DNA of 64,000 nt, taken from the NCBI GenBank assembly GCA_035353995.1, contig DAOQAL010000001.1, positions 70,867 through 134,866 of the forward strand, given 5' to 3'. The position numbers were made by a program, and so were the translations under genes. The DNA is from Minisyncoccota bacterium. GTDB lineage: Bacteria > Patescibacteriota > Minisyncoccia > Phycocordibacterales > UBA9973. The notes under the pieces are model-generated. The model worked only from the letters and a program-made list of their open reading frames with translations, did not search any database and had not been told where the DNA came from. Of the stretch, positions 5,970 through 24,506 are shown in pieces (position 1 is the first letter of the stretch; every line of letters starts with the position of its first letter).

Positions 5970-6384
5970 TACCAAACATACCAATAGTACCTTTAGTAAT
6001 AGGAAGCTCTGTACAAGGATCTCCAGTTATTAAACATTCACCACCTTGTGAATATTTACCAAGAATTACAGATCCTCCAGGAATCCCTGTCCCTGCTCTC
6101 TTCTCTGAGGCAGAAGAATAGAGATATGTTCCACTATAATCTGACGGACCAGTAACAGTTACTTGATAGCCATCACTACAAGTACAAGACTGAGTTGATA
6201 CTATCCTACCGCCAAACATAGAAAGTTCAGCACTTGTAGCAAAAACAATAGAAAAAGTAAATATTACTGTAAAAATTAAAATTACTACTAAAAAAATTCC
6301 CAAAATTTTATTTTTAAAAATACTTTCCATAAAAATATTATAGCATAAAAAATAAATCAATGATAGAATACTAATATTATGCAC
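5962..6384 (-). CDS. Small membrane-anchored Cys-containing protein, divergent from the T4SS-like operon
   Basis: Hydrophobic N-terminus (ILGIFLVVILIFTVIFTFSIVFA) followed by about 90 aa containing 5 Cys. The true start is probably the internal MESIF. Confidence 0.4.
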   Translation of the reverse strand: MHNISILSLIYFLCYNIFMESIFKNKILGIFLVVILIFTVIFTFSIVFATSAELSMFGGRIVSTQSCTCSDGYQVTVTGPSDYSGTYLYSSASEKRAGTGIPGGSVILGKYSQGGECLITGDPCTELPITKGTIGMFGTN

Positions 6385-7320
6385 CTTGATGATAATTACA
6401 AAAAATATCTACCGAGTAAAAAGTTTGCTTATTCAATAGCTTCACTGCTTGCATGTGGTTTAATTGTTTTTTTAATTGCAAATTTACTTTCAAGTAAAAA
6501 TAGTTTTTTCTCTTCTAAAAAAGAAACCAAAATAAGTTTAGAAAACATGACAACAAATGAATTAATAACTCTTGATTCAGATGGAGACAGTATTCCAGAT
6601 TGGGAAGAAGCATTATGGGGAACAGATCCAAAAAATAAAAAAACATTTGATAATATTAATGACTCAGAATATATAGAAAATAAAAAAATAGAAAATGGTA
6701 TAAAACCATCCGAAGATGATGGAACTTTAACAGAAACTGATAAATTTGCTAGAGAATTTTTTGCTACTTATATGGCAATGAAAACAACTGGACAGATAGA
6801 TGATAAGGCTATTACTGAATTCTCAACAGCATTAGGGCAAAATATAGCTGAAAATTCTGTTATCGATGAATATTCAAAAGAAAATATACAAATTACAAAA
6901 AGTGATACAGCAGAAGACCAAAAAAGCTATTATATTAAAGCTGGAAGCCTATTTGAACAATATAAAGAAAAAGGAATAGGAGGTGAACTTCAAATAACTG
7001 CAGCTATAGCAAACTCTAGAGAATCTAGTGATATAGAAAAATCGGAAAATTATCTATTAGAAATTTCTAATGCATATCAAGAATTTGCAAAAAAATTGGT
7101 TAATGTACCAGTGCCAGAAAGTTTGACTGATTATCATCTTCAAATAATTAATAATGCAAACAATACAGGAATTTCTATTATTAATATGGCAAAAATTATT
7201 TCAGATCCAATTGTTGGAGTCTCTGGACTTTCTCAATATCAAAAATATAGTAATTCATTAGTAGAATCTGTGGAAAGTTTAGAGAGTTTTTTATCAAAAA
7301 ATGGTATAATACCCGAGTAG
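6379..7320 (+). CDS. Signal-anchored secreted protein with a thrombospondin-type-3-like Ca-binding motif; first gene of the T4SS-like operon
   Basis: N-terminal TM segment (FAYSIASLLACGLIVFLIANLL). DSDGDSIPDWEE at nt 6574-6609 matches a DxDxDGxxDxxE calcium-binding loop. Confidence 0.6.
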   Translation: MHLDDNYKKYLPSKKFAYSIASLLACGLIVFLIANLLSSKNSFFSSKKETKISLENMTTNELITLDSDGDSIPDWEEALWGTDPKNKKTFDNINDSEYIENKKIENGIKPSEDDGTLTETDKFAREFFATYMAMKTTGQIDDKAITEFSTALGQNIAENSVIDEYSKENIQITKSDTAEDQKSYYIKAGSLFEQYKEKGIGGELQITAAIANSRESSDIEKSENYLLEISNAYQEFAKKLVNVPVPESLTDYHLQIINNANNTGISIINMAKIISDPIVGVSGLSQYQKYSNSLVESVESLESFLSKNGIIPE

Positions 7321-7327
7321 TATATAT

Positions 7328-9796
7328 ATGAGAAAAACTTTTTCCAAAATAGTTTGCTCGATTGTAATGATAAGTATTATCATGATGTCTTTTGCGGGCA
7401 TTGAACCAAAAAAAGCTAAAGCTGAATCTATTGAAAATTATATTTCAAAATTATCTCCTATGATTGCTGAACTTCCAGGATGTTCGGATAAAATTTCTGG
7501 TTCTATATCTGGTCTTTTTTCAAAAGTAAAAGATATGGTAAATGGTAAAGAAAAAAACGATAAAACCGAACAAAGTGTTGAAGACCAAGTTAAATTTAAC
7601 GCAGGTGATTATGTTCCTGTTGTTGATGAAGAGAGTGTAGAAATGCTTAAAGACGTTAAAAAAACAACAGAAAGTACAGAAAAAAAGGTTTCTAGTTTGG
7701 AGACTAATAATACCTGTTTAAATGCAATAGGGAAAGCGGTAGCAAAAATTTTAGTTCAAGATATAACAGAAAGTGTTGTTAATTGGATCCAAACTGGAGA
7801 TTTTGGTGATCCATTGTTTATTCAAAATCCAAGTCAATATTTTGAAGATATAGCAAAAAATGAAATATTGGGTTTTGGTCAGGAGATAAGTGACCCAACA
7901 CTATATCCTTTTGGAAAAGCATTTATGCAAATTAAGGCAAATTCTTTTAAAAACAAATTCGCAAATAATGCAAAATATAGTTTAAATACATTAATGGAAG
8001 ATAGATATCCAGGGTTTACTTCAGAAAATTTTTATGCCGATTTTTCACAAGGAGGATGGGGAGCCTGGAATGCAATGGTTCAAAATCCTGCTAATAACCC
8101 ATTGGGTTTCGCTTTAATGGCTTCGGAAGAACTAGAAAAGAGAATTGAAGAAAAAACAAGTTTAGCAAAAGATTCTCTTCAGCAATCAGGTGGGTATTTA
8201 GGAGTTGAAAGATGCGCTAACCCAGAAGGAGTTTCAAAAGAAGAAGATGATAATTATAGAAATGGGGTAGAAGGAGCTCGTAAGTGTAAGAGCTGGGAGA
8301 CTGTTACACCAGGAAGATTAATTGGGGATGAATTAACAAATACATTCATGAAAAAAGATAATGCTTTAATGGATGTAGAAACGTTAAACGATGCTGTTGC
8401 TGCAATACTAGATGCAGTTTTGGATAAATTTGTAAGTTCTTTCCAAGAAGAAGGATTGGCAGATCTAAATATTGATAGTTATTACGAAACATATGACTTT
8501 GAAGGATTTGGCAGTTCTCAAAGTGACCAAGATTATACAGATGCACAAATAAATGCAAGCACATGGCTTAAACAACATCCAGATTTTGATATAAGAACAG
8601 ATTTAAACCAAGCTTTAATAGACGAGCAAAGAATATATTCTGATAAATTAGAAACTCAAAATAAAGAATTATATTCTACAGTAGAAAAATCTACTGAAAA
8701 TCCACTAGGAAATTATGGATTGGTTCCAACAATTTACCAATTAGACTATTGTATACCGGGCCCTCATACTGGCTGGAAGGAGGATACACAAGCAAGTCTT
8801 GAAACGATACAAGAAGAAATGGCAAATAAAAAATTTATAGATTACGAAGATGAATCATGGTTTGAAATTCTTAACTTAATTACACTTGGAGGTGCAAGTA
8901 TGGTAGCAGGGTATATTAATGATTATGCTTTTAAATGCGATGGCAGTACAGGCAGACAAGCAGCTCTTACATATATGAATCAATTTAATATTATGACTAC
9001 TGGTGGAGACAAATACTGGATTAAAAACAAGCAAAGTTCAAATCTTCCATTCTGTACTGTAAATGGTTTTATATCAGCAACTGACAAGGTTGAATCTGAT
9101 TATGAAAAATTAGTAGATACTTTTTATGCTACAAAATTTTTGCCTAGTGTAAGTAGTGAAGCTGAAACTTTATTTGAAAAAATTTCTGGTTATCATCAAA
9201 TAATGGAAGATAATAAATATACAATAGATACCTTAGCTGGGACGATAAGAAGATTAGAACAAATAAAAAAAGAAGTTGATGATATAAATAGCAAACTTGC
9301 TTCTGGAGAAATGGACCAAGACACATATAATGAAAATCTAAAAGTCTGGAAGGGCACTTTTGCAAGACTATCTTCTGGATTATATTCTGGGGACGATATA
9401 GCTAAAGCCGATAATGCAACAAAAGAAATAATAGATGAAAAAGATCATGTATATAACGACTTAATAAAGAGTGCAACTGGTTGCGAGCAAGAGGTAAAAC
9501 AAAATTTTCCTTCAGCTTATTCTTGGGAAATTTATTCTTCTTATAGACCAGATTATACAAAACCACACTTGTATGACTATCCAGACAGATTAGCCTCAGC
9601 TGGTGTTCCTATATCTAAAACAACAAAAGAAAAATCATTCGCACCGAATGTTGTAATTATGGATAGCGCAAGCACTACGTGCCCTACTAGCTATGCTATT
9701 GGCTGTATAGATATTACTGGTTTTGTGCAAACAAAAGATCCACATAAGGCTGAGAATGCAGGATATTATTGGGAACAAGCATTAGGAATATATTAA
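7328..9796 (+). CDS. Large secreted protein (822 aa), function unknown
   Basis: Cleavable-looking signal peptide (MRKTFSKIVCSIVMISIIMMSFAGIEPKKAKA). Long ORF, in-operon, with no recognisable catalytic motif. Confidence 0.65.
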   Translation: MRKTFSKIVCSIVMISIIMMSFAGIEPKKAKAESIENYISKLSPMIAELPGCSDKISGSISGLFSKVKDMVNGKEKNDKTEQSVEDQVKFNAGDYVPVVDEESVEMLKDVKKTTESTEKKVSSLETNNTCLNAIGKAVAKILVQDITESVVNWIQTGDFGDPLFIQNPSQYFEDIAKNEILGFGQEISDPTLYPFGKAFMQIKANSFKNKFANNAKYSLNTLMEDRYPGFTSENFYADFSQGGWGAWNAMVQNPANNPLGFALMASEELEKRIEEKTSLAKDSLQQSGGYLGVERCANPEGVSKEEDDNYRNGVEGARKCKSWETVTPGRLIGDELTNTFMKKDNALMDVETLNDAVAAILDAVLDKFVSSFQEEGLADLNIDSYYETYDFEGFGSSQSDQDYTDAQINASTWLKQHPDFDIRTDLNQALIDEQRIYSDKLETQNKELYSTVEKSTENPLGNYGLVPTIYQLDYCIPGPHTGWKEDTQASLETIQEEMANKKFIDYEDESWFEILNLITLGGASMVAGYINDYAFKCDGSTGRQAALTYMNQFNIMTTGGDKYWIKNKQSSNLPFCTVNGFISATDKVESDYEKLVDTFYATKFLPSVSSEAETLFEKISGYHQIMEDNKYTIDTLAGTIRRLEQIKKEVDDINSKLASGEMDQDTYNENLKVWKGTFARLSSGLYSGDDIAKADNATKEIIDEKDHVYNDLIKSATGCEQEVKQNFPSAYSWEIYSSYRPDYTKPHLYDYPDRLASAGVPISKTTKEKSFAPNVVIMDSASTTCPTSYAIGCIDITGFVQTKDPHKAENAGYYWEQALGIY

Positions 9797-9797
9797 A

Positions 9798-12200
9798 ATG
9801 AAAAAAACAAATCAAAAAATAAAAAAAATTATTTATAAATATTTAATCTTGTGTTTAGTTTTTGTTTTTGCTTTTTCTATTGCAGAAAACTCTTTTGCTT
9901 ATCCAACAGTTAATATAACTGCAAACCCTGATTCAGTTGTATATGAAGGAATATCAACTGTCACTTGGTCATCATCAGAAACTGATTATTGCATTTGGAG
10001 TGATGGCACAACAGCTAAAACTTCTGGTTCTTTTGTTACAGGTCCACTTAAATTTAATAATAATTATTATTCTCTTACATGTAAAAAAGGAAATTCATGT
10101 GTTGCATATTCTCCTGATAAAATTTTATATACATCTAAAAATGGCACAAGCTTGGGATTGGCAAAGAATTTTTGTTATTCAAAAACAACAGATGGAAAAG
10201 AAACATGCGAGTCAGCACAAGCAAGTTATGGATCGGATTTGGTAGAGAATGTTTGTTATTGGGGCAATACAGAAGCATCCAATTCAGTAATAATAACAAC
10301 AAGTCCAAAACAAACATCTGGTGGATCTATAACCAATACTTTAACAGGTGGTGCATCTGGTATAGAGGATACAAAAGCAACATTAAGTGGATCTTTAAAT
10401 CCTGGAGGTAATACATCTATCTCTGGGTATTTTAGATATTCTGCTGTAACACCACAAGACATAACACCTGTCTTTTGTAATGATATATACGGTTCAAATA
10501 TGAGATCAACAAAAGAAATAAATTTAAACGGAGCAGATAGTTCAACAACTTTTACAACCACTATTTCTGGTTTGGAAGAAAATACAACATACTACTACTG
10601 TGCTGTTGGTTCTGGCTATAATGAAATAACATATGGTGGAGTAAGATCATTCACAACAGGACTTTCTTCTTCATCATTCTCAGTAACAACAAATGATGCA
10701 CTAGTCGTAAATGATACATCTGCATATTTAAACGGATATTACAATACGGTTGTTTCTGCAAATACATATTTTGAGTACAGAAAAAAGTTTCAGGCAGTCC
10801 CTAATACATCAAATGCTTCTATTTCTAAAAACACTTCGTCAAGATTCTTAGGATATGTTAAAAATACTTTTAATAAATTATTACAAACAGATAAAGTGCT
10901 AGCTTCAACAAGTGACACTAAATTTTCGGACTGGATAAGAGTTGGAGACCAAAGTCACAACAGAAGCACTTATGGGAAAATGAGCACATTAGTAAGCGGA
11001 CTTTCTCCAAGCTCAACTTATCAATTTAGAGCTGTAATAGAAACAAGCAGTTCATCATCTACTTCCCAAATAAAATATGGAAATCTTTTATCTTTCACAA
11101 CAGCGAGCTCAGATACAACAACACCTGGCGATGTTCCTGGAGGAGAAGAATATAATGACCCATGTGCATCAATAGCAGACAGTGTTGATATAAATTGTAA
11201 TGGTACAGGAGGAGATGAAGAAAATGGGAAAATAACAGGATCTGGTATTGATCTTACTGTTGGTACAGTGACCCCAACAAATGTAACAAAAAATACATTA
11301 ACTCCATTTTATGCTTACGTAAAAAATCAAGGAGGGACATCAACTGGAAAAAATTTCTATGGTTTTTTCCAAATTTCAACTTACGATAGAACACCAGCTG
11401 ACACAGGAAGTAATAATAATATTAAAAATAAAAATCAAACAACACCAGCAAATTCTGCAGGAACACCAGTAAGTAAAATAGAAAAATTGTTAACAATAAA
11501 TAAAGCATTTGCCACATCAGGCAATTCCAATCCTGCAAATAATGCAACAGCAGTCAGCACGACTGTTACAGATGGTTCTCTAATAAATCTTCCAGCTGTT
11601 TCTATATCTACCTTGGGAGCAAAAAAATCAGTAAAAATATCAAGCTCATATGCTTTTGGTTCTTCTGGTACATATTATATGAGAGCTTGTGCTGATAAAA
11701 AAGACAATAAGGATATAGGATTGATAAAAGAATCGTATGAAAATAATAATTGTGGATCTTGGACAAAAATTATTGTTAAATCAGGTGGTGGAGGAAATAA
11801 TAATAGTAATGACGATACAGGCAGTCTTAGTCTTGGACAAATTGCTACACCTCCATCTGACGCAATCGTACGATACCATGAAGGAATTGAGCATGTATTT
11901 GCAAGACAAATAATTAATAATATAGAAATGGCAGAAGCTTATGGATATAAAGAAGGAGATAGTTTAGAAAAATTTGCCTGGAATTTTGCGGACTTACTTG
12001 CAAAAGATTTTGGTTATGTAGCACAAAATAGAAAAGAGATAAGGGTAAGTTTGCCAGATATTGCAGCATACCAGTTAAGAATGGAAGCAAGCGGACTAAC
12101 AGTATATGAATACTTTGATTCAAAAATTGTAAATATTCAAACGACAACAATGTCGTTGCGAGGTATTTATGATTATGAATATTATTTCAATAAAAGATAG
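9798..12200 (+). CDS. Large secreted Ser/Thr-rich protein (800 aa) with fibronectin-III-like modules
   Basis: Signal peptide (ILCLVFVFAFSIAENSFA). Repeated Fn3-like signatures (ISGLEENTTYYYCAV, VSGLSPSSTYQFRAV) and S/T/N-rich linkers. Confidence 0.65.
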   Translation: MKKTNQKIKKIIYKYLILCLVFVFAFSIAENSFAYPTVNITANPDSVVYEGISTVTWSSSETDYCIWSDGTTAKTSGSFVTGPLKFNNNYYSLTCKKGNSCVAYSPDKILYTSKNGTSLGLAKNFCYSKTTDGKETCESAQASYGSDLVENVCYWGNTEASNSVIITTSPKQTSGGSITNTLTGGASGIEDTKATLSGSLNPGGNTSISGYFRYSAVTPQDITPVFCNDIYGSNMRSTKEINLNGADSSTTFTTTISGLEENTTYYYCAVGSGYNEITYGGVRSFTTGLSSSSFSVTTNDALVVNDTSAYLNGYYNTVVSANTYFEYRKKFQAVPNTSNASISKNTSSRFLGYVKNTFNKLLQTDKVLASTSDTKFSDWIRVGDQSHNRSTYGKMSTLVSGLSPSSTYQFRAVIETSSSSSTSQIKYGNLLSFTTASSDTTTPGDVPGGEEYNDPCASIADSVDINCNGTGGDEENGKITGSGIDLTVGTVTPTNVTKNTLTPFYAYVKNQGGTSTGKNFYGFFQISTYDRTPADTGSNNNIKNKNQTTPANSAGTPVSKIEKLLTINKAFATSGNSNPANNATAVSTTVTDGSLINLPAVSISTLGAKKSVKISSSYAFGSSGTYYMRACADKKDNKDIGLIKESYENNNCGSWTKIIVKSGGGGNNNSNDDTGSLSLGQIATPPSDAIVRYHEGIEHVFARQIINNIEMAEAYGYKEGDSLEKFAWNFADLLAKDFGYVAQNRKEIRVSLPDIAAYQLRMEASGLTVYEYFDSKIVNIQTTTMSLRGIYDYEYYFNKR

Positions 12201-12227
12201 ATTTGAGATCGGTTTTAAAATTGAAGA

Positions 12228-14618
12228 ATGGAAATAATTAGAAAAAATAATTTAATAAAGAAAATATTAATACCATTTATTGCTTTGGCTATTTTCTTGA
12301 TGCCTATTAGCCCAAGTTTGAAAATCAATAATGGACATCTGGCAACAAAAATTACTGTAAATAGAGCTTATGCTGAGAGTATAGAAACTGCCACAAAAGA
12401 AATAGGAGAGACGAGTGCAAGTTTTAAAATAATTCTTTTAAACACAATAAATTTATCGGTATATAATACCCCATATAATGTAATAATAACTCTTTATCAG
12501 GGGAAAAGTGACGGAACAACTGAAAAAAATTATATAGAGACACAAAATTTTCCTTTTGAAGTTAACACTGAAAGACAAGAATTTGACGCAGTGTTTAAAA
12601 AACTAAACCCTGGTACTAGTTACTATTTTACAGCTACAGTATATCATACTATATCGGGTGACTCATCAATAAAAATTAGAGATTTTGATACCACGGGGAA
12701 TGGAGGTAGTGGCTTAAGCACTCAAAAAGATGCCTCCGAACTTGTAAATATTGATAATCAAGAATTGAACTTGGAATGTACTATTTGGGATGGCTGGGAA
12801 GGCATAGGAGGTTGCATAGCTAATTTATTTTATATGGTTTGGCAAGTTTCTGAATGGATTGCTAATTTAGCAGGTGGTTTTCTTGATTTTTTTGTTTACT
12901 ATTCAACAAATAGCAGTTCTTACGTTAGTGGTTTTATAACAGAGGGCTGGGGAGCAATACGAGATATTGCTAATATTTTCTTTATTGTTGCTTTATTGTA
13001 TGTTGCTATAAAAACAATATTAAGTTTAGGGGGGCAAGACACAAAAAAATTGATTGGATATATCGTTATTATGGCATTACTTATTAATTTCAGTTTATTT
13101 TTCACACGAGTAATTGTTGATGGATCAAATATTCTGGCGAAGGTATTTTACAACAATATAACACCAAAGAATAAAGACGGAAAAGTAATAACAGGAGATG
13201 AAGGAGAAAAATCTATTACAGTTGGATTAGTTGATAAATTTAATCCAGCAAGTCTTGTAACAAATTCGGTTTATCAAAGTGAAGGTATGACTCTAGGAAA
13301 GTTTATTTTTATAGTTCTCTTACTTACAGCAATTACTCTTTCTATGGCATATATGTTCTTTACGGTTGCAATTGTTTTTGTAAGCAGAACTGTAATGCTG
13401 TGGATTTCTATGATTTTTTCTCCGATTGCTTTTGCATCATACACCTTGCCTTTTAACATACCCGGAATGGGTCATAAGGATTGGTGGGATCAACTATTAA
13501 AAAATGCATTCCTAGCTCCAATTTTTGTATTTTTCTTATATATAATAGTGATGTTTACCAATTTCTTAAAAGAAATTACTTATGATCCAACCAATGATTC
13601 TTTTTTGGGAAGTTTAATGCATATAGTAATTCCTTTTATAATTCTCTTTATGTTGCTGATGAAGGCCAAAGAGATGGCAGTAAAATTATCTGGAGAAATG
13701 GGTAAGGCAATTACAAAAGGAGCCACTATGTTAGGAGGTGTTGCATTAGGCGCAGCTGCTGGCAGTGCAGCTTTTGCAATGCGTGGCACTTTGGGAAGAG
13801 TCGGAAATGCTCTTGGTAATGCGGAGTGGACTAAAAAAACTGGCAAATTTGGAAGAGGTATGCAAAACATTGGACACTCATTAGGTAAAGGAAGTTTTGA
13901 TGTAAGAGGAATAAAGGTTGCTGGAAAGAGCTTGGCAAGCACTGGTATTCCAGTTGGAACAACAAGTGGGACTGGAGGGTATGAAAAGATACGTGCCGAC
14001 AAGATAGAAAAGAGACAAAAGAGAGCAAAAGAACTTGAGGTTGGAGAAAATAGCGGAATGAAACAAGAACTAAACAAAACCGAAGCAGACCTACAGGGTC
14101 TCTTGGTCACGAACGCAAAAGAAATCGAAGATATCGACAAATTAATTGACAAGAAGAAACAAGAAGCCGCTGATGCAGAGAGGAAAATGAAAGGTCTTCC
14201 ACCTGGACAGGAACACGAAGATGCTCAAGCAGCCTTAAGAGCAGCAAACGATGAGGTACAAAATGCTAAAGACAGAAAAAAGAACTTCCGAGAAGGAAGA
14301 GCTCATACGGATCTCGATGGCACAGTACATGACTACGAGACATCAGCAGTCTTAAAAGACAAGAATGGAAATACTATACATAAAAAAGACGCAAATGGGA
14401 ACATAGAGTTGGACGCAAACGGAAGACCAATAGCTATGGGTATTGATGTGCTGGAAAAGCAACAAAAGACACAAGCACAGGGCATCAAGACCGAAAACGT
14501 AATAAGGAGAACCAAATATGCTAAGGCTAAAGGACACTGGTATAATGGTAAAGGAAGTAGAGAAGCAGCTCATAAGATAATAATGGAGACAAAATTAGAT
14601 AGTGGTACTAAAACATAA
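12228..14618 (+). CDS. VirB6/TrbL/ConG-like polytopic membrane protein with N-terminal Fn3-like ectodomain and long charged/Gly-rich C-terminal tail
   Basis: Signal/TM at the N-terminus; Fn3-like NPGTSYYFTATVYH; at least 6 hydrophobic helices between residues about 180-520; Gly-rich then KE-rich coiled-coil-like tail. Confidence 0.6.
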   Translation: MEIIRKNNLIKKILIPFIALAIFLMPISPSLKINNGHLATKITVNRAYAESIETATKEIGETSASFKIILLNTINLSVYNTPYNVIITLYQGKSDGTTEKNYIETQNFPFEVNTERQEFDAVFKKLNPGTSYYFTATVYHTISGDSSIKIRDFDTTGNGGSGLSTQKDASELVNIDNQELNLECTIWDGWEGIGGCIANLFYMVWQVSEWIANLAGGFLDFFVYYSTNSSSYVSGFITEGWGAIRDIANIFFIVALLYVAIKTILSLGGQDTKKLIGYIVIMALLINFSLFFTRVIVDGSNILAKVFYNNITPKNKDGKVITGDEGEKSITVGLVDKFNPASLVTNSVYQSEGMTLGKFIFIVLLLTAITLSMAYMFFTVAIVFVSRTVMLWISMIFSPIAFASYTLPFNIPGMGHKDWWDQLLKNAFLAPIFVFFLYIIVMFTNFLKEITYDPTNDSFLGSLMHIVIPFIILFMLLMKAKEMAVKLSGEMGKAITKGATMLGGVALGAAAGSAAFAMRGTLGRVGNALGNAEWTKKTGKFGRGMQNIGHSLGKGSFDVRGIKVAGKSLASTGIPVGTTSGTGGYEKIRADKIEKRQKRAKELEVGENSGMKQELNKTEADLQGLLVTNAKEIEDIDKLIDKKKQEAADAERKMKGLPPGQEHEDAQAALRAANDEVQNAKDRKKNFREGRAHTDLDGTVHDYETSAVLKDKNGNTIHKKDANGNIELDANGRPIAMGIDVLEKQQKTQAQGIKTENVIRRTKYAKAKGHWYNGKGSREAAHKIIMETKLDSGTKT

Positions 14619-14620
14619 AT

Positions 14621-15118
14621 ATGACCGAGAAATTAAAACAGACAATTAAAGAACAAATGGTAATTATGCCTAAGGAATCACAAGAAGTGGTAAATAATTT
14701 TGATTGGGTAAAAATTTCCGAGGAAATTGGCAAAAAATATCTATTAAGTGAAGAAGAAATTAATATTTTACAAGCGGAGATAGCAACAGTACTGGTATGT
14801 GCCGAAGATCAAGATTATCTTACTCAAGATATAGAAAACGAGGTTGGTACAAGCAAGACTGAAGCAGAAAAAATAGCAAGTGAAGTTTTAGAAAAAATTT
14901 TTAAGCCACTAATTGAGAATTTATCTAAAAAAATAAAATTGGAATTAAAAGATCGTCCGATTAATTGGCAACAAAATTTAGATTTTATTCTTTCGGGGGG
15001 AGACTATACTGCTTTTATAAGAAAACCAATAAAAGAAGAAGACAATGTTGCTCCACAAGGAAATACTTTTTCAAACTATTCTGATTTAGATGATTTAAAA
15101 AGTAAATTTACAATATAG
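14621..15118 (+). CDS. Soluble hypothetical protein, paralogous to the next gene
   Basis: 165 aa with no TM. Shares a roughly 55-aa motif with 15135-15848 (FDW...KKY.LSEEEINILQAEIATVLVCA vs VDW...KKGYSFEQLEDLEIETELLLCG). Confidence 0.5.
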   Translation: MTEKLKQTIKEQMVIMPKESQEVVNNFDWVKISEEIGKKYLLSEEEINILQAEIATVLVCAEDQDYLTQDIENEVGTSKTEAEKIASEVLEKIFKPLIENLSKKIKLELKDRPINWQQNLDFILSGGDYTAFIRKPIKEEDNVAPQGNTFSNYSDLDDLKSKFTI

Positions 15119-15134
15119 TGTATAATAAAATTAT

Positions 15135-15848
15135 ATGGATAAACCGATAGATTTATTACAAATAAAAATAGAGAGAGCTAAAGAGTCTTTACCAAAAGAA
15201 ACATTAAAGGCTATTAATTCTGTCGACTGGAGGGCTTTCATTCTTGCCCTACGAGAAAAAAAGGGGTACAGCTTTGAACAATTAGAGGATTTAGAGATTG
15301 AAACAGAACTTTTACTTTGTGGTCTTTTATCAATTGAAAATTATCCAAAAGAAATAGAGGAAAGATTAAAAATTCCAAAACCACAAGTTGATTTATTAAT
15401 TAATGAAATGAATGAATCAGTATTTAAAAAAATTAGAGAAGAATTAATAAAAAATACAGAAAAAGAAGAATTGTTTGTTAGAAAAGAAGAAAAAATAGAA
15501 CAAAAACAAGTAATACAAACAGGAATAGATCCAACAATAAATAAAAGCGAGTCGAATATACTAAATAAAGCGGGAATAAGTATAATTGAAAGAGCAGAAG
15601 AGATTGCCCCACCTTCTAATACAGAAGTAAAAAAGGAAAACCCAATCGAAAAGCCAGTAGAAAAGCCAGTGGAATCAATTCCGTCTCAAAAATTGGCTGG
15701 TTCATTTCAAATTCCAATGACAAAAACTGAATATTCATTAAACAATAAACAGAATGTACAAAAAAATTTAACAGCAGAAAAAGAACAAACAGAAAAAATA
15801 AAACTTTCTAAAATAGATCCATACAGATTAGACCCAAATGCTGAATAA
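15135..15848 (+). CDS. Soluble hypothetical protein, paralogous to the previous gene
   Basis: 237 aa. N-terminal domain related to 14621-15118; C-terminal low-complexity K/E/P-rich region (PIEKPVEKPVESIP). Confidence 0.5.
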   Translation: MDKPIDLLQIKIERAKESLPKETLKAINSVDWRAFILALREKKGYSFEQLEDLEIETELLLCGLLSIENYPKEIEERLKIPKPQVDLLINEMNESVFKKIREELIKNTEKEELFVRKEEKIEQKQVIQTGIDPTINKSESNILNKAGISIIERAEEIAPPSNTEVKKENPIEKPVEKPVESIPSQKLAGSFQIPMTKTEYSLNNKQNVQKNLTAEKEQTEKIKLSKIDPYRLDPNAE

Positions 15849-15878
15849 AAAAGGAAAGATAAAATAAAAATCAAAAAA

Positions 15879-16301
15879 ATGCAATTTAAGGTACCACAAT
15901 TTTTAGATATAGAAGATAAAATTTTTGGACCATTTACTTTCAGCCAATTTGTATATTTGGCTGGTGGAGCAGGGTTATGTTTTGTGCTATATAAATTATT
16001 AGGTTTTTTACTTGGTTTTATTCCAATACTAGCAGTTGCAGCATTTGCAGTAGCATTAACTTTTTACAAACCAAATGGCAAACCTTTCATAAATACAATA
16101 GAAGCTGGACTAAAATACATGACACAAAATAAATTATATATATGGAAAAGAAGAAAACAAAAAATCACTACAACAAATACAACAGAAACACAAAAGAAAG
16201 ATGATATCATAAACAATAGAAATACAAGATTAACAAATAGTAAGTTACAAGATTTAGCATGGAGTCTCGATGTATTAGATTCCAAAAAAGAAGATAAATA
16301 A
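15879..16301 (+). CDS. VirB3/ConD-like small two-TM protein
   Basis: 140 aa with two adjacent hydrophobic helices (FVYLAGGAGLCFVLYKLLGFLLGFIPILAVAAFAVALTFY). Sits immediately upstream of the VirB4-like ATPase, as in Gram-positive T4SS. Confidence 0.5.
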   Translation: MQFKVPQFLDIEDKIFGPFTFSQFVYLAGGAGLCFVLYKLLGFLLGFIPILAVAAFAVALTFYKPNGKPFINTIEAGLKYMTQNKLYIWKRRKQKITTTNTTETQKKDDIINNRNTRLTNSKLQDLAWSLDVLDSKKEDK

Positions 16302-16302
16302 A

Positions 16303-16938
16303 ATGGCATTAAAAGCAAAAGCAACTCAAGACTTTGTTCCGATAAAAGAGGTTCGAGATGGAATCATCATTTTAAAAGATGGTGGGTTGAGAGCTATCAT
16401 ATTAGCGAACTCTGTAAACCTTTCACTAAAATCAGCAGAAGAACAAAGAGCAACAATTATGCAATTTCAAAATTTTTTAAATACACTCGATTTTCCAATA
16501 CAAATTTCTGTTCAATCAAGAAGACTTGATATAAGACCTTATCTTTTATTGTTGGAAAATAGAATAAAAGTCCAAAATGAACCATTGTTAAAATTACAAA
16601 CAAAAGAATATATGGGGTTTATAAAAGATTTTACCGATTCTGTAAATATTATGACAAAAACATTTTTTATAGTAGTACCATATACACAAACTACAATAAG
16701 GGCTGATTCTGGTATATTTAAAGGATTATTCCAAACAAAAAATAAAGAAATGATAAAAAAAGAAGCCGAAATTGATTTCGAAGAAAAAAGATCACAATTG
16801 GAACAAAGAGTCAGTGTTATAGAGCAAGGTCTTTCACGTTGTGGCGTTAAGGCAGTACAATTAGAAACAGATCAAGTTGTAGAAGCATTTTATAAAGTAT
16901 TTAATCCAGGAGAACTTGAGGGAAAAATAGAAATTTAG
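16303..16938 (+). CDS. N-terminal segment of a split VirB4/ConE-like protein
   Basis: 211 aa with no TM. Same reading frame as the following ATPase ORF, separated only by TAG-AAG-ATT-ATG. Combined length of 826 aa matches full-length ConE/VirB4. Confidence 0.55.
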   Translation: MALKAKATQDFVPIKEVRDGIIILKDGGLRAIILANSVNLSLKSAEEQRATIMQFQNFLNTLDFPIQISVQSRRLDIRPYLLLLENRIKVQNEPLLKLQTKEYMGFIKDFTDSVNIMTKTFFIVVPYTQTTIRADSGIFKGLFQTKNKEMIKKEAEIDFEEKRSQLEQRVSVIEQGLSRCGVKAVQLETDQVVEAFYKVFNPGELEGKIEI

Positions 16939-16944
16939 AAGATT

Positions 16945-18792
16945 ATGTCAATATTTGATTCATTTTTTAATACAAAAAAGAAAAGCAATGAAAACCAAAC
17001 ACAAGTTGGAGCAAATCCTTCTGTTTTGGCAGTACTGCCAGAAGAAATATATGAGTCTGCAAAACTTGAATTGCAAGATGTCATTGCGCCTTCAGCATTA
17101 AGGATTGAGCCAAAATCAATTAACTTAGGAGATAAAATAGCAAGAACATTTTTCATAATTTCTTTTCCAAGATTTTTATCTGATAACTGGTTTTCACCAA
17201 TAATAAACCTAGATAAGGTTTTTGATGTTTCTATTTTTGTTCACCCAATAGATACATCTTTAGCATTAAGACAATTTCAGAAAAAAGTAGCTGAAGTACA
17301 AAGTCAAATAAGTGTCAGAGAAGCAAAAGGGATGGTTAGAGATCCAATGTTAGACACAGCACATGAAGACTTAGAAAGTCTAAGAAATAATTTGATACAA
17401 GCACAAGAAAAAATGTTTGATGTTGGTATATATATAACAATATATGCAGATAATGAACTAGAACTTTTTAAAATAGAAAATGAAATAAAATCTATACTTG
17501 AATCAAAATTAATTTATATAAAACCAGCTCTTTTCCAACAAAATGAAGGATTTAAGAGCGTTATACCAACAGGAACTGATCTTTTAGGCATACATCAAAA
17601 ACTAAATTCTGAGCCTCTTTCTAGTATTTTTCCTTTCATATCTTTCGACCTTACTTCCACTAAAGGAATTTTATATGGTGTTAACAGACACAATTCAAGT
17701 TTAGTAATATTTGATAGATTTTCATTGGAAAATTACAACTCTGTAACTTTTGCAAAATCTGGTTCTGGAAAATCTTATGCAACAAAATTAGAAATATTAA
17801 GATCATTGATGTTTGATGTAGATGTAATAGTTATAGACCCTGAAAGGGAATATGAATACTTAACTGAAGTAGTAGGTGGAAGATATTTTAATATTTCTCT
17901 TTCATCTGATCACCACATAAACCCTTTTGATCTTCCAATACCAAGAGAAGATGAGACAGCAGAGGACGTTCTACGTTCAAATATAATAAACTTAGTTGGA
18001 TTATTCAGACTAATGCTTGGAGGATTAACACCAGAAGAAGATTCTCTTGTTGATAGAGCAATTTCAGAAACATATGCAATGAAAGATATAACCCCAGATT
18101 CTGATTTTTCTAATATTGAACCACCTCTTCTTTCAGATTTTGAAATGATTCTTGCTGGTATGGATGGAAGTGAGTCTGTAATGCAAAGATTGGTAAAATA
18201 TACAAAAGGATCTTGGTCCACATTCTTAAATAAACCATCAAATGTTGATATTAATAAAAAATTCGTAGTATTTTCTGTCCGTGATATGGAAGATGAATTA
18301 AAACCAGTAGCTATGTATATAGTAATGCACTATATTTGGACAGCAGTAAGAAAAAATTTGAAGAAACGATTACTTGTAGTTGATGAGGCTTGGTGGATGA
18401 TGAAATCTGAAGATACTGCTTCTTTCTTGTATTCTATGGCAAAAAGAGGAAGAAAATACTATCTTGGACTTTCAACTATAACACAAGATGCTGCCGACTT
18501 TATGAAGTCTACTTATGGTGTACCAATAATAACTAACTCCTCAATACAAATACTTTTAAAACAGTCACCAACAACCATAGATGTGTTGCAAAAAACATTT
18601 AACCTTACAGATGAAGAAAAATACTTACTTTTGGAATCAGGAGTAGGGGAAGGTATATTCTTTGCGGGAATGAAACACGTTGCAATAAAAATAATAGCTT
18701 CTTACACAGAAGATCAGATTATAACATCAGACCCGTCACAAATATTGTCGATTAAAAAAGAAAAGGAAGAAATTGAGAAAACAAATGAATAG
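16945..18792 (+). CDS. virB4: VirB4/TrbE/ConE-family type IV secretion ATPase
   Basis: Walker A FAKSGSGKSYATK, Walker B LLVVDEAWWMM, and a conserved pre-Walker region (ARTFFIISFPRFLSDNWF...VSIFVHPID). Confidence 0.85.
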   Translation: MSIFDSFFNTKKKSNENQTQVGANPSVLAVLPEEIYESAKLELQDVIAPSALRIEPKSINLGDKIARTFFIISFPRFLSDNWFSPIINLDKVFDVSIFVHPIDTSLALRQFQKKVAEVQSQISVREAKGMVRDPMLDTAHEDLESLRNNLIQAQEKMFDVGIYITIYADNELELFKIENEIKSILESKLIYIKPALFQQNEGFKSVIPTGTDLLGIHQKLNSEPLSSIFPFISFDLTSTKGILYGVNRHNSSLVIFDRFSLENYNSVTFAKSGSGKSYATKLEILRSLMFDVDVIVIDPEREYEYLTEVVGGRYFNISLSSDHHINPFDLPIPREDETAEDVLRSNIINLVGLFRLMLGGLTPEEDSLVDRAISETYAMKDITPDSDFSNIEPPLLSDFEMILAGMDGSESVMQRLVKYTKGSWSTFLNKPSNVDINKKFVVFSVRDMEDELKPVAMYIVMHYIWTAVRKNLKKRLLVVDEAWWMMKSEDTASFLYSMAKRGRKYYLGLSTITQDAADFMKSTYGVPIITNSSIQILLKQSPTTIDVLQKTFNLTDEEKYLLLESGVGEGIFFAGMKHVAIKIIASYTEDQIITSDPSQILSIKKEKEEIEKTNE

Positions 18793-18837
18793 TTTTCAAC
18801 CTGGCATCTATTACAAAATAAATGATATAATAAAAGT

Positions 18838-19803
18838 ATGTTTAAAAAGGGTTTAATTATATTTTTTACGTTAATTTGTTTATTTTTTGGATCACAAGTT
18901 AATGCACAAGTAAAAAGTGGTAATATCGTACTTAGTATAAGTCCCCAATACCCTAAAGCTGGAGAAGAAGTTCAAGCTTCTGTTTCAACATATTCGACAG
19001 ATTTAAATAATTCTAGAATTTCTTGGATAGTTAATGGAACAACAAAACTTGAAGGAGTTGGTAAAAAAACTTTTTCTTTTAGAATGGAAAATTCTGATTT
19101 TCAAACAGTTCTTGAAGTAAAAATTGAAACGCTTGATGGTTCTACAATAAATAAACAAATTACGATATCATCAACTAATGTTGATATGCTTTGGGAAGCG
19201 TATAACACATATACTCCTCCGTTTTATAAGGGAAAAACGTTGGCCACAACAGAAGGAATGATAAAAGTTGTGGCTTTTCCTAATACAACTAATTTAATTG
19301 GTTTTAATTATAAATGGGAAATGGATAATAAAAGCAAACAAGATTCTTCTGGATATGGAAGAAATTATTTTATATATAAAAATAGTTTTTTAGAAGATAG
19401 TAATACTATAGGAGTAAATGTTTCAGATATTTTTGGAAATAGTATAGGAGAAGGCACAACTACAATAAAACCAGGCAGTCCTATAATAAATTTTTATAGG
19501 AAAGACAGGAATCTTGGAATTAAATGGGAAAATATTTTAGAAAATGGATTTTCAATTAATAGAGAAGACGGTGACACAATTATAGTTGAACCATATTTTC
19601 TTTACCCGAAAGATTTTAATTCTGCAGATATATCTTGGGATTGGTTGATTAATGGAGAAAAAGTTCAAAACCAGAATCCTAAAAATTCTCTTTCAGTAAA
19701 ATTAGCAAACGAGGAATCAGGAAATGCAATAATAAAAGTTATGATTAGTAATACTAAAACACTTTTTGAAAGTGTTGAAAAACAATTAAATGTCAATTTC
19801 TAA
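18838..19803 (+). CDS. Secreted protein (321 aa), probable beta-sandwich repeats
   Basis: Signal peptide (LIIFFTLICLFFGSQVNA). No catalytic motifs. Lies in-operon between the VirB4-like gene and the hydrolase. Confidence 0.55.
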   Translation: MFKKGLIIFFTLICLFFGSQVNAQVKSGNIVLSISPQYPKAGEEVQASVSTYSTDLNNSRISWIVNGTTKLEGVGKKTFSFRMENSDFQTVLEVKIETLDGSTINKQITISSTNVDMLWEAYNTYTPPFYKGKTLATTEGMIKVVAFPNTTNLIGFNYKWEMDNKSKQDSSGYGRNYFIYKNSFLEDSNTIGVNVSDIFGNSIGEGTTTIKPGSPIINFYRKDRNLGIKWENILENGFSINREDGDTIIVEPYFLYPKDFNSADISWDWLINGEKVQNQNPKNSLSVKLANEESGNAIIKVMISNTKTLFESVEKQLNVNF

Positions 19804-21070
19804 ATCAAAAAAAATAATTATTTTTTTTCTGCTTATAATATTTTGTGGCAGTATTATTTTACCAGCTAGTGTTCTTGCAGTAGATCAAACAATATCAATT
19901 CAATGTTATTCAATAAACCAAAATGGGACTACGAAAAAATGGTCTCTTGGTTTTAAAATAAGTACTACAAATGTTGCAAATGGAACGAAAATTTATGATT
20001 ATTTATATGAAGATGGTATCAACTTAACAGAAGGAAACAAAATTTCTACTATCAAAGATGATTACGCAGAGTATCTTACTGGACAAATACTAGACTCAGA
20101 AACAAAATACACAGTAACAGCGACAGTAGTAGGCACGCCAAAGCTAACTACTTCTGTAAGCATTACAACACCTAAAGATGGAGAACAAGCAACTTCTTGT
20201 ACACCTTCAAACCCAGAAACTTCCCAAACAATCAAAAATACCATAAACACAGACAAAGAAACAAACAAAGAAACAGAAACAACATATACACTTCTTGCGC
20301 CATTGCCTGGATTAGAGGGTACAATTGATACAAAAATAAGTGCTGAAAATCCTTGCCCATTTGGAAACTACTTAAATATTATTATAAAACTATTTTTGGG
20401 AGTCTGTGCTGTCCTGGCTGTAGTCATGATTGTGATTGGTGGTATAGAATACATGACTAGTGATTTAGTTTCATCCAAAGAGTCTGGTAAAAAAATGATA
20501 ACTAATGCCATATTGGGTCTTCTACTCGGGCTCGGGGCATACGTTATATTGTCTGAACTAAACCCAGACTTGCTCAAAGTGTGCTTAAATAGTTTACCAG
20601 AAGTATCAATGGTTGCAGATGACAATGTTCCACAATCTCCAATTAATGGTAAATACTGCACTAATACATATGGAACAAATGGCGGATATACTGCAGGAGC
20701 AGATTGGTCTGCTATTGCTGGGAAAGCATCCACTTTACCAAGTGGAGTAAAAACTAATAACCCAGAGTGTACAAAAGTTGGAGAAAAAAATTGCACAAGT
20801 TTGCGTGGATTAAATCTCAGTACAATAAAAACTATTCAGTCAAAATGCACTTCTTGCGGAACAATAACAATAACTGGTGGAACTGAATGTTGGTTACATG
20901 GTGGATCAAAACAGAAAACAACACACCACATAAAAAGTCCAACCATAGACTTACGTCTCGAAACAAAATTGGATTCTTATATAAAATCAGGAACAAAAAA
21001 TGGATCCTGGTATAAAAAGGATGGAATTTTGTATTTATTAGAATCAAAACATTGGCACGTAGGAAATTAA
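19790..21070 (+). CDS. Secreted/membrane protein combining a VirB2/TrbC-like two-helix hairpin with a C-terminal peptidase-M15-like (VanY/L,D-peptidase) cell-wall hydrolase domain
   Basis: Signal peptide. Mid-protein TM1 (LFLGVCAVLAVVMIVIGGIEYM), short charged loop, then TM2 (ILGLLLGLGAYVILS). C-terminus has THHIKSPTIDL (matching the SxHxxGxAxD pattern) and ESKHWHV (matching ExWH), as in M15 peptidases. 8 Cys in the C-terminal domain. Confidence 0.6.
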   Translation: MSISKSKKIIIFFLLIIFCGSIILPASVLAVDQTISIQCYSINQNGTTKKWSLGFKISTTNVANGTKIYDYLYEDGINLTEGNKISTIKDDYAEYLTGQILDSETKYTVTATVVGTPKLTTSVSITTPKDGEQATSCTPSNPETSQTIKNTINTDKETNKETETTYTLLAPLPGLEGTIDTKISAENPCPFGNYLNIIIKLFLGVCAVLAVVMIVIGGIEYMTSDLVSSKESGKKMITNAILGLLLGLGAYVILSELNPDLLKVCLNSLPEVSMVADDNVPQSPINGKYCTNTYGTNGGYTAGADWSAIAGKASTLPSGVKTNNPECTKVGEKNCTSLRGLNLSTIKTIQSKCTSCGTITITGGTECWLHGGSKQKTTHHIKSPTIDLRLETKLDSYIKSGTKNGSWYKKDGILYLLESKHWHVGN

Positions 21071-21074
21071 AAAT

Positions 21075-22418
21075 ATGTCAAAAAGAAAAATAATAACAAT
21101 ATTAGTCACAATAATAGCAGTGTTTTTAGTTACTTGGACACTACTAAGTTTTTATAAATCATCAAAAAATACTACTGGAGAAAATACAACAGGAACAAAT
21201 TTTCTTTCTGAATTTTTCCCATTTGGAAAAAATAAAACAAACACAACAGAAAATAATGGGACACCTACAGATATCTCAGGTTATACAACGTCAGAAGATG
21301 GAACATTAGTAGAAAAATTAACAAAAGTTTCAAGTATGCCAGTGGCTGGCTATGGTGTTTTTACAAAAGAAAGATATAAAGAGATAGAAGTACCTGTTAA
21401 TAATACAGAAAATATTATTGAAAATTCCAGCACAGAAGAAAGTTCACAAATCCCAACCCCTCCACAAACAGAATTTATACCAATGATAAGATATGTAGAA
21501 AGAGCTACAGGAAATATTTTTCAAACTTACGCAGATAAAATAGAAGAGAGGAAATTTACAACAACAGTAATTCCACAAATATATGAATCATATTTTGGAG
21601 ACGAAGGAAACTCTGTAGTGATGAGATATCTAAAAGATGACAACAAAACAATAGAAACATATATTGGAAAATTACCAGAACAAATATTAGGTGGAGATAC
21701 TTTAAATAATGGAGACATATCAGGATCTTTTTTGCCAGAAAATATTACAGATATAAGTGTTTCACCTGATGCACTTTCTGTATTTTATGTTTTTAATAGT
21801 GGCAACAATGCAATCGGTTCTATTGCCAAAACTTCCAACAACACAAGAAATCAAATTTTTAGTTCTCCTTTTACAGAATGGTTATCATTTTGGCCAAATG
21901 ACAGAATGATTACAATTACAACAAAACCTTCTTATAATGTAACTGGTTATATGTATTCGATCGATCCTAATACAAAGAAAATGACAAAAATACTCAGTGA
22001 TATAAATGGGCTTACAACACTTACAAGTCCAAGCGGAAAGATTATATTGTATTCTGGTAATGATCTTTCATTGCGAATATATAATTTAGATACAAGAGAA
22101 TCAACTTCAACAGGTATAAAAACTTTGCCTGAAAAATGTACTTGGAGTAAAACAAATACTATATTGTATTGTTCTGTGCCAAAATATATTGATGGAATAA
22201 AATATCCAGATACATGGTATATGGGGGAAGTATCATTTTCCGATGAAATATGGAAAATAAATATAGAAAATGGAACTACAACATTGCTTGCAGATCCTAT
22301 TTCTTTCTCAAAAGGTGAAGAAATTGATGGTATAAAACTATCTTTAGATGAAAAAGAAAATTATTTACTCTTAATAAATAAGAAAGATTCCTATCTTTGG
22401 GAACTTGTTCTCTATTAG
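21075..22418 (+). CDS. Signal-anchored protein with TolB/PD40-like beta-propeller repeats; last gene of the operon
   Basis: N-terminal TM (IITILVTIIAVFLVTWTLLSFY). Repeated PD40-like strands (SPDALSVFYVFNSGNNAIGSI, TSPSGKIILYSGN). Confidence 0.6.
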   Translation: MSKRKIITILVTIIAVFLVTWTLLSFYKSSKNTTGENTTGTNFLSEFFPFGKNKTNTTENNGTPTDISGYTTSEDGTLVEKLTKVSSMPVAGYGVFTKERYKEIEVPVNNTENIIENSSTEESSQIPTPPQTEFIPMIRYVERATGNIFQTYADKIEERKFTTTVIPQIYESYFGDEGNSVVMRYLKDDNKTIETYIGKLPEQILGGDTLNNGDISGSFLPENITDISVSPDALSVFYVFNSGNNAIGSIAKTSNNTRNQIFSSPFTEWLSFWPNDRMITITTKPSYNVTGYMYSIDPNTKKMTKILSDINGLTTLTSPSGKIILYSGNDLSLRIYNLDTRESTSTGIKTLPEKCTWSKTNTILYCSVPKYIDGIKYPDTWYMGEVSFSDEIWKINIENGTTTLLADPISFSKGEEIDGIKLSLDEKENYLLLINKKDSYLWELVLY

Positions 22419-22930: not shown

Positions 22931-22931
22931 A

Positions 22932-23657: not shown

Positions 23658-23731
23658 TACCTTATCTTATATTAAAAAATTAAAAAAATCTACCTTAAAA
23701 GTAAGAATAGAATAAAAATAAAAAAGAAACC

Positions 23732-23983: not shown

Positions 23984-23984
23984 T

Positions 23985-24353: not shown

Positions 24354-24354
24354 A

Positions 24355-24489: not shown

Positions 24490-24506
24490 AATTGTAGTAT
24501 ATAACA

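Follow-up and report, generated by a model that had tools for sequence, protein, structure and literature searches.

The 64,000 nucleotide (nt) stretch of contig DAOQAL010000001.1 analysed here (hereafter the window), from the Minisyncoccota bacterium assembly GCA_035353995.1, carries at positions 6379-22418 twelve open reading frames (ORF1 to ORF12, all on the plus strand; Table 1) that very probably encode a Patescibacteria type IV secretion system (T4SS) that resides on the chromosome, is inherited vertically and descends from conjugation systems of the mating-pair formation class FATA (MPF-FATA), with no conjugation functions in view. A non-conjugative, vertically inherited apparatus of this kind had been proposed from the sequence alone (hereafter the original prediction), and the proposal is upheld by the profile matches of the core proteins, the lack of mobility genes among the scanned ORFs of the window, a gene order kept in 54 of 54 relatives and the agreement with published systems. 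Since such systems have already been described (PMC12102498, PMC10633639), the interpretation is right but was already known. The locus adds no new kind of system; it is a clean and complete Paceibacteria example in which the core parts (ORF1, ORF2, ORF4 and ORF7 to ORF12) can be told from an accessory one (ORF3). Only ORF11, a pilin with interchangeable wall-cutting domains, is apparently unreported. Patescibacteria, which live on other cells, account for a large part of bacterial diversity, and no T4SS but theirs is known to be essential for the growth of its owner.

Core proteins of the secretion system

We compared the proteins with the Pfam and NCBIfam profile libraries, used hhalign for profile-profile alignment and Foldseek for structure searches against the PDB. 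VirB4 relatives number more than 516 in the species-representative genome set, and the comparisons reported below concern the best 80 of them (loci L001-L080). ORF9 matches the NCBIfam model NF045971 ('VirB4-like conjugal transfer ATPase, CD1110 family') with 365.9 bits (E = 4.2e-109) against a cut-off of 325, and its Pfam matches are P-loop_TraG (2.3e-24), AAA_10 and DUF87. Both the Walker A (FAKSGSGKSYATK) and the Walker B (LLVVDEAWWMM) motifs on which the VirB4 assignment was originally based are present. The alignment of ORF9 with PrgJ of plasmid pCF10 (26% identity, E = 8e-42) covers PrgJ residues 228-772 only, and the N-domain that ORF9 lacks is supplied by ORF8. The latter, to which the original prediction gave no assignment, matches the NCBIfam models VirB4_plasma (8.8e-11, model positions 101-234), TrsD (NF041427, 8.5e-6), TIGR00929 (positions 3-185) and CD1110 (positions 2-120), and has a precomputed Pfam match to PF26593 (TraC-like). 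ORF7, for its part, belongs to Pfam PF12666 (PrgI; 8.1e-9, 36.3 bits against a cut-off of 27; TcpE at 9e-4) and has orthologs in 76 loci (38-66% identity). The profile searches thus sustain the proposed core, with VirB4, PrgI and the T4SS_pilin domain of ORF11 above cut-off and TrsD and VirB4 N-domain matches for ORF8. The VirB3-like protein of the original prediction is indeed there as PrgI, but it is not directly upstream of virB4, as ORF8 sits between the two.

The trsD and virB4 genes are separate in all 75 loci in which both were assigned, their frame relation is random and their spacers are variable. In the window, ORF8 and ORF9 lie in one frame, with TAG AAG ATT between them (16936-16947). 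Given the random frame relation in relatives, the two genes were separate ancestrally and their common frame in the window is a matter of chance; readthrough from ORF8 into ORF9, which we considered, is ruled out by the random frames and variable spacers. In three relatives an insert of 445-497 nt lies between trsD and virB4 (L059:2975-3419, L063:9504-10000 and L066:9515-10000) and encodes a small helical ORF. Its product may resemble the four-helix-bundle proteins of 23S rRNA intervening sequences.

Inheritance and genomic context

Among the window ORFs of at least 157 amino acids (aa), which are those that were scanned for mobility families, none matched a relaxase, VirD4/TcpA/FtsK-type coupling protein or integrase family, and for these ORFs the earlier statement that the 64 kb holds no relaxase or coupling protein is borne out. 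The only secretion-type (T2SSE/VirB4-class) ATPases among them are VirB4 and T2SSE/PilB. The best 80 VirB4 relatives all come from metagenome-assembled genomes of Patescibacteria (Nomurabacteria, Paceibacteria, Parcubacteria and Kaiserbacteria). When their gene order was charted by tblastn, the succession PrgI-TrsD-VirB4-ORF10-ORF11-ORF12-jag-yidC-rnpA-dnaA-dnaN was found in nearly every locus, with ORF1, ORF2 and ORF4 upstream and, in many, ksgA or uvrD as the left boundary. In all 54 loci with both ends visible, the orientation is the same and the end of ORF12 lies 1.2-4.0 kb (median 2.1 kb) from dnaA, so that the operon and its position near the origin are both conserved in related genomes. 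This constancy of order, orientation and distance to dnaA argues for the vertical inheritance of a core chromosomal operon and against an integrated element. VirB4 is 74-92% identical across these 80 species-level relatives, whereas DnaA from the same genomes shows 55-88%, and VirB4 also exceeds YidC and DnaN; such a ranking points to very strong purifying selection on the ATPase.

The twelve co-directional ORFs lie where they had been placed, with spacers of 7, 1, 27, 2, 16, 30, 1, 6, 45, -14 and 4 nt in order. The maximum of 45 nt given by the original prediction is therefore correct, while its mention of several overlaps is not, the single overlapping pair being ORF10 and ORF11. It had also counted six proteins with a signal peptide or anchor, where hydropathy gives an N-terminal hydrophobic segment in seven. 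As it had stated, the composition is like that of the surroundings, the guanine plus cytosine (GC) content ranging from 0.29 to 0.34 within the locus, against 0.24-0.35 for the remainder of the window. On the upstream flank lie a M23/LysM peptidase gene (minus strand), uvrD and ksgA, the last of which ends 410 nt before ORF1; the boundaries of this complete operon are thus ksgA, the twelve genes and then jag.

The gap between ksgA and ORF1 is filled by a 140-aa ORF on the minus strand (5962-6384) that overlaps the start of ORF1 by 6 nt. It begins with GTG, or at an internal ATG near 6330, and its product combines a membrane segment with a small domain that contains Cys; a homolog was seen in L077 only (30%). 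It may be a genuine gene, transcribed divergently, or else a spurious ORF across the promoter region of the operon.

Comparison with known systems

The survey of Quinonero-Coronel et al. 2025 (PMC12102498) described a monophyletic VirB4 clade of Patescibacteria, sister to MPF-FATA, with TrsD as the most abundant associated component and with PrgI/VirB3, VirB6 and PF18895/VirB2-like pilins near virB4; relaxases were very few and homologs of the type IV coupling protein (T4CP) mostly far from virB4. The commonest virB4 neighbours in Paceibacteria were dnaA, dnaN, rnpA, ksgA and rpmH, and the same authors suggested a gene-dosage effect and a function that has been repurposed, possibly for import. 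By transposon sequencing, Wang et al. 2023 (PMC10633639) found the origin-proximal genes SEML1_0006-0019 of Southlakia epibionticum to be essential for epibiotic growth. Kuroda et al. 2024 (PMC10936435) reported that, in Paceibacterales that parasitise methanogens, proteins with a T4SS-pilin domain are among the unknown extracellular proteins with the highest expression, and a 2025 FEMS review lists the Patescibacteria systems as a new T4SS group.

The window locus resembles these systems in being chromosomal and adjacent to dnaA, in combining VirB4 with a separate TrsD, PrgI and a large polytopic protein (in the window only a candidate for the VirB6 type), in having a PF18895 pilin domain and a wall hydrolase after virB4 in a cluster without relaxase or coupling protein, and in its Paceibacteria neighbours ksgA, rnpA, rpmH, dnaA and dnaN. 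Its gene order (polytopic protein, then PrgI-TrsD-VirB4-X-hydrolase) parallels that of SEML1_0013-0006 in S. epibionticum. However, where the window has a single pilin fused to the hydrolase, the Saccharibacteria locus encodes an array of six small pilins, all free-standing, and, separately, a lysozyme-like protein, and the S. epibionticum locus includes an NTF2-like (VirB8-type) protein, of which profile comparison found no equivalent in the window locus. ORF1, ORF2, ORF5, ORF6, ORF10 and ORF12 have no described counterpart in Patescibacteria T4SSs.

The likeness of gene set and order to Gram-positive MPF-FATA systems, which the original prediction had stressed, holds for the core, PrgI and VirB4 being above cut-off and the order paralleling prgH-I-J-K of pCF10. 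In this MPF-FATA prototype from Enterococcus faecalis, PrgH (VirB6-like), PrgI, PrgJ (VirB4) and PrgK (hydrolase) follow one another, and PrgI falls in the same Pfam family as ORF7. On the other hand, pCF10 has PcfC (VirD4), the relaxase PcfG, the VirB8-like PrgL and LPXTG adhesins but no pilin, PrgJ keeps its own N-domain, and PrgH is not matched by the ORF4 profile (hhalign, 4.7% probability). In the Trs system of the Staphylococcus plasmids pGO1 and pSK41, as in the window, the gene of a small protein (TrsD/TraD) with homology to the N-terminus of VirB4 immediately precedes the VirB4 gene. Unlike the window locus, the Trs system serves conjugation, is carried on plasmids and has a relaxase and a coupling protein. 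Tn916 (Orf17-Orf16-Orf15-Orf14-Orf13) and ICEBs1 (ConD-ConE-ConG-CwlT) also join a VirB3-like protein, VirB4, a polytopic protein and a hydrolase in one operon; the ORF4 profile matches that of Orf15 locally, and many ORF11 orthologs have NlpC/P60 hydrolase domains. These elements differ by their integrase, excisionase, MobT relaxase and FtsK-like coupling protein, by a polytopic gene downstream of virB4 and by the absence of a pilin module. The integrative and conjugative elements (ICEs) of Mycoplasma, a wall-less or minimal-genome monoderm lineage, provide the best named families for the ORF11 pilin, ORF4 and ORF8 (Mbov_0395, Mbov_0396 and Mbov_0397 VirB4; MMCAP2_0565/0566), all below cut-off. 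Their mobility and their coupling protein set these ICEs apart from the window locus.

Pilin and wall hydrolase domains of ORF11

ORF11 is the sole ORF of the window with a pilin module, which consists of two helices (aa ~160-262, nt 20267-20575) and matches PF18895 (T4SS_pilin) over aa 195-254 at 4.2e-6, with 27.2 bits against a cut-off of 26.6; the NCBIfam Mbov_0395 pilin-like model is matched at 4.8e-4, below its curated cut-off. Among 67 syntenic orthologs, PF18895 was found in 57 and TrbC/VirB2 in 4. Hydropathy indicates a signal peptide and two membrane helices, an arrangement that, with the topology of VirB2, would make the N-domain and the Cys-rich C-domain both face outward. This C-domain (aa 262-426, nt 20573-21067) has 55 homologs, 32 of them with a recorded PF18895 match, in which C66, C74, T75, E105, H109, H118, D126 and H162 are invariant and H160 nearly so. 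Pfam, Foldseek against the PDB and hhalign against the VanY and M15_4 types all returned nothing for it; a Hedgehog/DD-peptidase (LAS, M15-type) fold is likely, but, given the lack of a Foldseek or hhalign match, not secure. Of the peptidase-M15-like wall hydrolase announced by the original prediction, the hydrolase stands and the M15 type is likely only, and the same protein also carries a VirB2-like pilin module.

The C-domains of the orthologs are diverse. Pfam assigned them to NlpC/P60 (13), VanY (8), YkuD (5), Amidase_5 (4), SLT types (4), Peptidase_M15_4 (3) and Amidase_2 (1), and the types include an unannotated domain with the pattern H-x7-D...HxH. By BLAST, the C-domains of the 67 orthologs cluster into at least 20 unrelated groups, that of the window being the second largest with 13 members. 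The type is common to nearest VirB4 neighbours in 14 of 66 cases, and among pairs with VirB4 identity of at least 90% in 9 of 40. The domain that precedes the pilin module is variable as well (TIG, Big_1, Filamin or none).

Five relatives have two genes with a pilin module (L064:12735-15645, L003:12862-17868, L075:3557-6876, L072:12558-17359 and L066:13870-16143), and in the three of them for which the types of both copies were determined (L064, L003 and L075) the C-domain types differ between the copies. In these three, the N-terminal and pilin parts common to both paralogs are 98.6% identical over 277 aa (L064), 80% over 391 aa (L003) and 68% over 253 aa (L075). When the L064 and L003 pairs were read residue by residue, the pilin module was identical and the identity stopped abruptly about 19 residues past NTINPxLL. 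We tentatively suggest that the pilin module of Paceibacteria could be a conserved carrier of an exchangeable peptidoglycan-enzyme cassette instead of a free pilin, a possibility that we hold with less than even confidence.

The C-domains of ORF11 are exchanged like cassettes, in the manner of polymorphic toxin loci, except that the enzymes act on the wall and an immunity gene is lacking. ORF11 shares with toxins such as Rhs, CDI and MafB a conserved N-terminal delivery or anchor part followed by unrelated C-terminal enzymatic domains, a sharp identity breakpoint and tandem paralogs that differ only in the C-terminal domain. In contrast to those toxins, the variable domains of ORF11 are peptidoglycan-active and not nucleases or pore formers, and the next gene, ORF12, is conserved and not an immunity gene; the resemblance is one of evolutionary pattern, not of ancestry. 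Neither the pilin-hydrolase fusion nor its exchange is mentioned in the literature searched, a limited set that gives no proof of novelty. If this reading of ORF11 is true, the T4SS would present a fast-diversifying envelope-cutting tip fitted to the wall chemistry of the host or of the cell itself, and this tip would determine host range and evolve in the way of a polymorphic toxin. Should the exchange track host wall type, it would help to predict the hosts of uncultivated lineages; the fusion offers a testable handle on host specificity.

Proposed function and alternative explanations

In the working model that we favour, VirB4, TrsD and PrgI would form an energising platform at the membrane and the polytopic ORF4 a VirB6-type channel. 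ORF11 would lie beside or in this channel with both extra domains outside the membrane, and would cut peptidoglycan so that the apparatus crosses its own wall or reaches through the host envelope. The anchored or secreted ORF1, ORF2, ORF3, ORF10 and ORF12 would make up the wall-spanning, host-contacting part. By analogy with S. epibionticum, such a machine may move macromolecules between epibiont and host and not mobilise conjugative DNA, and nucleic-acid import and protein export may both be compatible with it.

Several observations weigh against this interpretation. The genome outside the 64 kb seen could hold a relaxase or coupling protein, and five of the twelve products (ORF1, ORF2, ORF5, ORF6 and ORF10) have no assignable role. 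No VirB8-like (NTF2-fold) protein was detected, the ORF10 and ORF12 profiles being unlike PrgL/Orf13 and Pfam and NCBIfam giving no match; this negative concerns sequence profiles only, and a VirB8 homolog at the level of the fold may be present among ORF1, ORF5, ORF6, ORF10 and ORF12. As for the channel, Pfam TrbL/VirB6 was unmatched in all 31 ORF4 orthologs, and the hhalign match of ORF4 to Orf15 of Tn916/Tn925 (86.8% probability, E = 4.3e-6) extends over 53 columns only. ORF4 is composed, from N to C terminus, of a signal or anchor, an outer domain of ~200 aa, six hydrophobic segments (aa 243-477) and a charged tail of ~300 aa. Its orthologs match, below cut-off, the NCBIfam conjugal transfer family MMCAP2_0566 (5 of 31, best 9.6e-6), the CD3337/EF1877 mobilome membrane protein (3 of 31) and the Mbov_0396 ICE transmembrane protein (3 of 31). 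Of the ~800-aa polytopic VirB6/TrbL-like protein originally proposed, the topology is confirmed, while ORF4 can be called no more than a weakly supported candidate for a VirB6-type channel subunit.

That the core proteins are homologous to those serving conjugation in ICEs and plasmids of Firmicutes and Mycoplasma could also mean that the locus belongs to an integrated conjugative or mobilisable element, with its relaxase, coupling protein and integrase outside the examined region; only 64 kb of the genome is in view, and Patescibacteria often have T4CP homologs at a distance from virB4 (PMC12102498). We consider this very improbable, given that the scanned window ORFs match none of these mobility families, that the flanks are core genes (uvrD, ksgA, jag, yidC, rnpA, rpmH and dnaA) of the same GC content, and that the insertion context and orientation recur in 54 of 54 relatives with VirB4 more conserved than DnaA; relaxases, moreover, were found in only 103 Patescibacteria genomes and rarely near virB4 (PMC12102498). 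That the locus is what is left of an old conjugative element, now decaying and without function, would explain why VirB8, T4CP and relaxase are undetectable in the scans made, yet this is hardly credible for twelve intact and tightly packed ORFs with a VirB4 conserved across species-level genomes beyond DnaA and with a homologous locus that is essential in S. epibionticum (PMC10633639).

A machine that imports DNA or other nucleic acids, like ComB of H. pylori or Ced of the Sulfolobales, and so feeds a nucleotide-auxotrophic cell from its host or environment deserves more consideration, although we regard it as unlikely. ComB-type import systems work without relaxase and T4CP, and the lack of both among the scanned window ORFs fits this scenario. 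Import of DNA or macromolecules is the hypothesis favoured in PMC12102498, where comF, recG and radA adjoin the locus in class ABY1, and a 2026 preprint ties the monophyletic VirB4 to host RNA acquisition and shows tubular structures, maybe T4SS pili. However, the operon is without a competence or nucleic-acid-binding gene in Pfam and NCBIfam scans, and deletion of comEC in S. epibionticum abolished transformation but not growth while the T4SS was still essential, which indicates that classical DNA uptake is not the essential function. The apparatus might instead serve mainly for attachment, VirB4 assembling a VirB2-type filament or surface structure and translocating nothing. The VirB2-like module, the many surface proteins with immunoglobulin (Ig), fn3, CARDB and propeller domains, the high expression of T4SS-pilin-domain proteins in Paceibacterales co-cultures (PMC10936435) and the possible T4SS pili seen by cryo-electron microscopy (2026 preprint) would agree with this. 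We nevertheless judge it quite unlikely, since the sole pilin module has globular domains at both ends, which would make a tight VirB2 helix sterically doubtful, and since the window has a separate type IV pilus system (PilB, PilM), the known adhesion device in Saccharibacteria.

Other products of the operon

Table 1. Genes of the secretion operon and of the adjoining origin region, with positions in the window.
Gene	Length (aa)	Position	Strand	Description
ORF1	313	6379..7320	+	N-terminal membrane anchor; conserved first operon gene
ORF2	822	7328..9796	+	Signal/anchor, large extracytoplasmic protein; unannotated Patescibacteria family
ORF3	800	9798..12200	+	Secreted; CARDB and fn3-like beta-sandwich domains
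ORF4	796	12228..14618	+	Candidate VirB6-type channel subunit, 'extended VirB6' layout
ORF5	165	14621..15118	+	Soluble helical protein, no hydrophobic segment; ORF6 paralog
ORF6	237	15135..15848	+	Soluble ORF5 paralog, low-complexity tail
ORF7	140	15879..16301	+	PrgI family, VirB3 equivalent anchoring VirB4 in membrane
ORF8	211	16303..16938	+	TrsD/TraD-like; VirB4 N-terminal domain as separate protein
ORF9	615	16945..18792	+	VirB4 ATPase, system motor, without own N-domain
ORF10	321	18838..19803	+	Secreted; directly after virB4, conserved
ORF11	426	19790..21070	+	Signal peptide, variable N-domain, VirB2-like pilin module, wall-hydrolase domain
ORF12	447	21075..22418	+	N-terminal membrane anchor; conserved last operon gene
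jag		22436-22930	-	Pfam R3H
yidC		22932-23657	-	Pfam 60KD_IMP
yidD		23732-23983	-	Read from translation
rnpA		23985-24353	-	Pfam Ribonuclease_P
rpmH		24355-24513	-	L34, read from translation
dnaA		24629-25972	+	Pfam Bac_DnaA
dnaN		26197-27294	+	Pfam DNA_pol3_beta

The single hydrophobic segment of ORF1 covers aa 19-37, and its motif DSDGDSIPDWEE resembles a thrombospondin-type-3 Ca-binding repeat. Pfam gave no match for this protein and NCBIfam a weak one to the MtsD repeat (0.0057); its syntenic orthologs, in 38 loci, are 23-50% identical. ORF2 has conserved cysteines and a C-terminal half that is long and helical. In ORF3 the Pfam CARDB match (2.8e-5) is above cut-off and the fn3-type matches are weak. 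By tblastn, ORF3 is present in 12 of the 80 loci, and ORF2 directly abuts ORF4 elsewhere, for example in L005 and L008; ORF3 is an accessory surface protein that varies by lineage, stands as an insertion between ORF2 and ORF4 and does not belong to the core. In L002 the best matches of ORF3 and ORF4 fall within one 1257-aa ORF, which may reflect a fusion or a shared fn3-like domain.

ORF5, for which neither Pfam nor NCBIfam gave a family match, and ORF6, with orthologs in 43 loci, share a helical domain of ~90 aa (BLASTP, 25% identity over 88 aa, E = 6e-5). A known T4SS counterpart was looked for and none was found for either; that they could be cytoplasmic adaptors or accessories standing in for the coupling protein is speculation.

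ORF10 has a signal-like N-terminus and orthologs in 74 loci. It is probably a string of Ig-like beta-sandwich domains, judging by weak Ig, PKD and BiPBP_C matches in a few of 32 orthologs and a weak match to the Hoc Ig domain in the PDB (0.09). ORF12, with a transmembrane segment at aa 6-24 and orthologs in 69 loci (28-59% identity), is probably a TolB-like beta-propeller, its profile matching TolB in the PDB at 0.018 and PD40 being weakly matched in 2 of 30 orthologs. PG_binding_1 (8e-9) was matched in 3 of these 30 and an LPXTG-type anchor in one, which suggests that the ORF12 protein is wall-associated.

Origin region and other features of the window

The genes at 22436..25972 are the context of the origin region and lie outside the secretion machine. 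The original prediction had put the operon 2 kb from the replication origin (oriC). The start of dnaA is indeed 2.2 kb downstream of ORF12, but the position of oriC itself is inferred from gene context only, as DnaA boxes show no enrichment relative to the window as a whole and GC skew tracks the gene strand. There is a perfect DnaA box at 26145, in the dnaA-dnaN spacer, with near-boxes at 24507, 24518 and 26137; two near-boxes were placed in the rpmH-dnaA spacer.

In all 54 loci the 16-kb operon is transcribed toward dnaA and converges on jag-yidC-rnpA-rpmH. If oriC adjoins dnaA, this conserved operon would apparently run head-on to the replication fork, which is unusual. The orientation is absent from the discussion in PMC12102498, where a gene-dosage benefit is proposed, and such an apparent head-on arrangement beside the origin is a lead worth following.

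Elsewhere in the window, type IV pilus genes occur at 33985-35682 (minus strand) and 54926-58169 (plus strand), with a PilB-type T2SSE ATPase (3.7e-111) and PilM (8.7e-34). The small ORFs on either side of PilM have no Pfam match and are probably pilins and PilN/O-like proteins. At 47503-51095 (minus strand), this presumed monoderm has a tripartite-efflux-like operon that encodes a permease of the MacB type, an ABC ATPase and an adaptor of the HlyD family.

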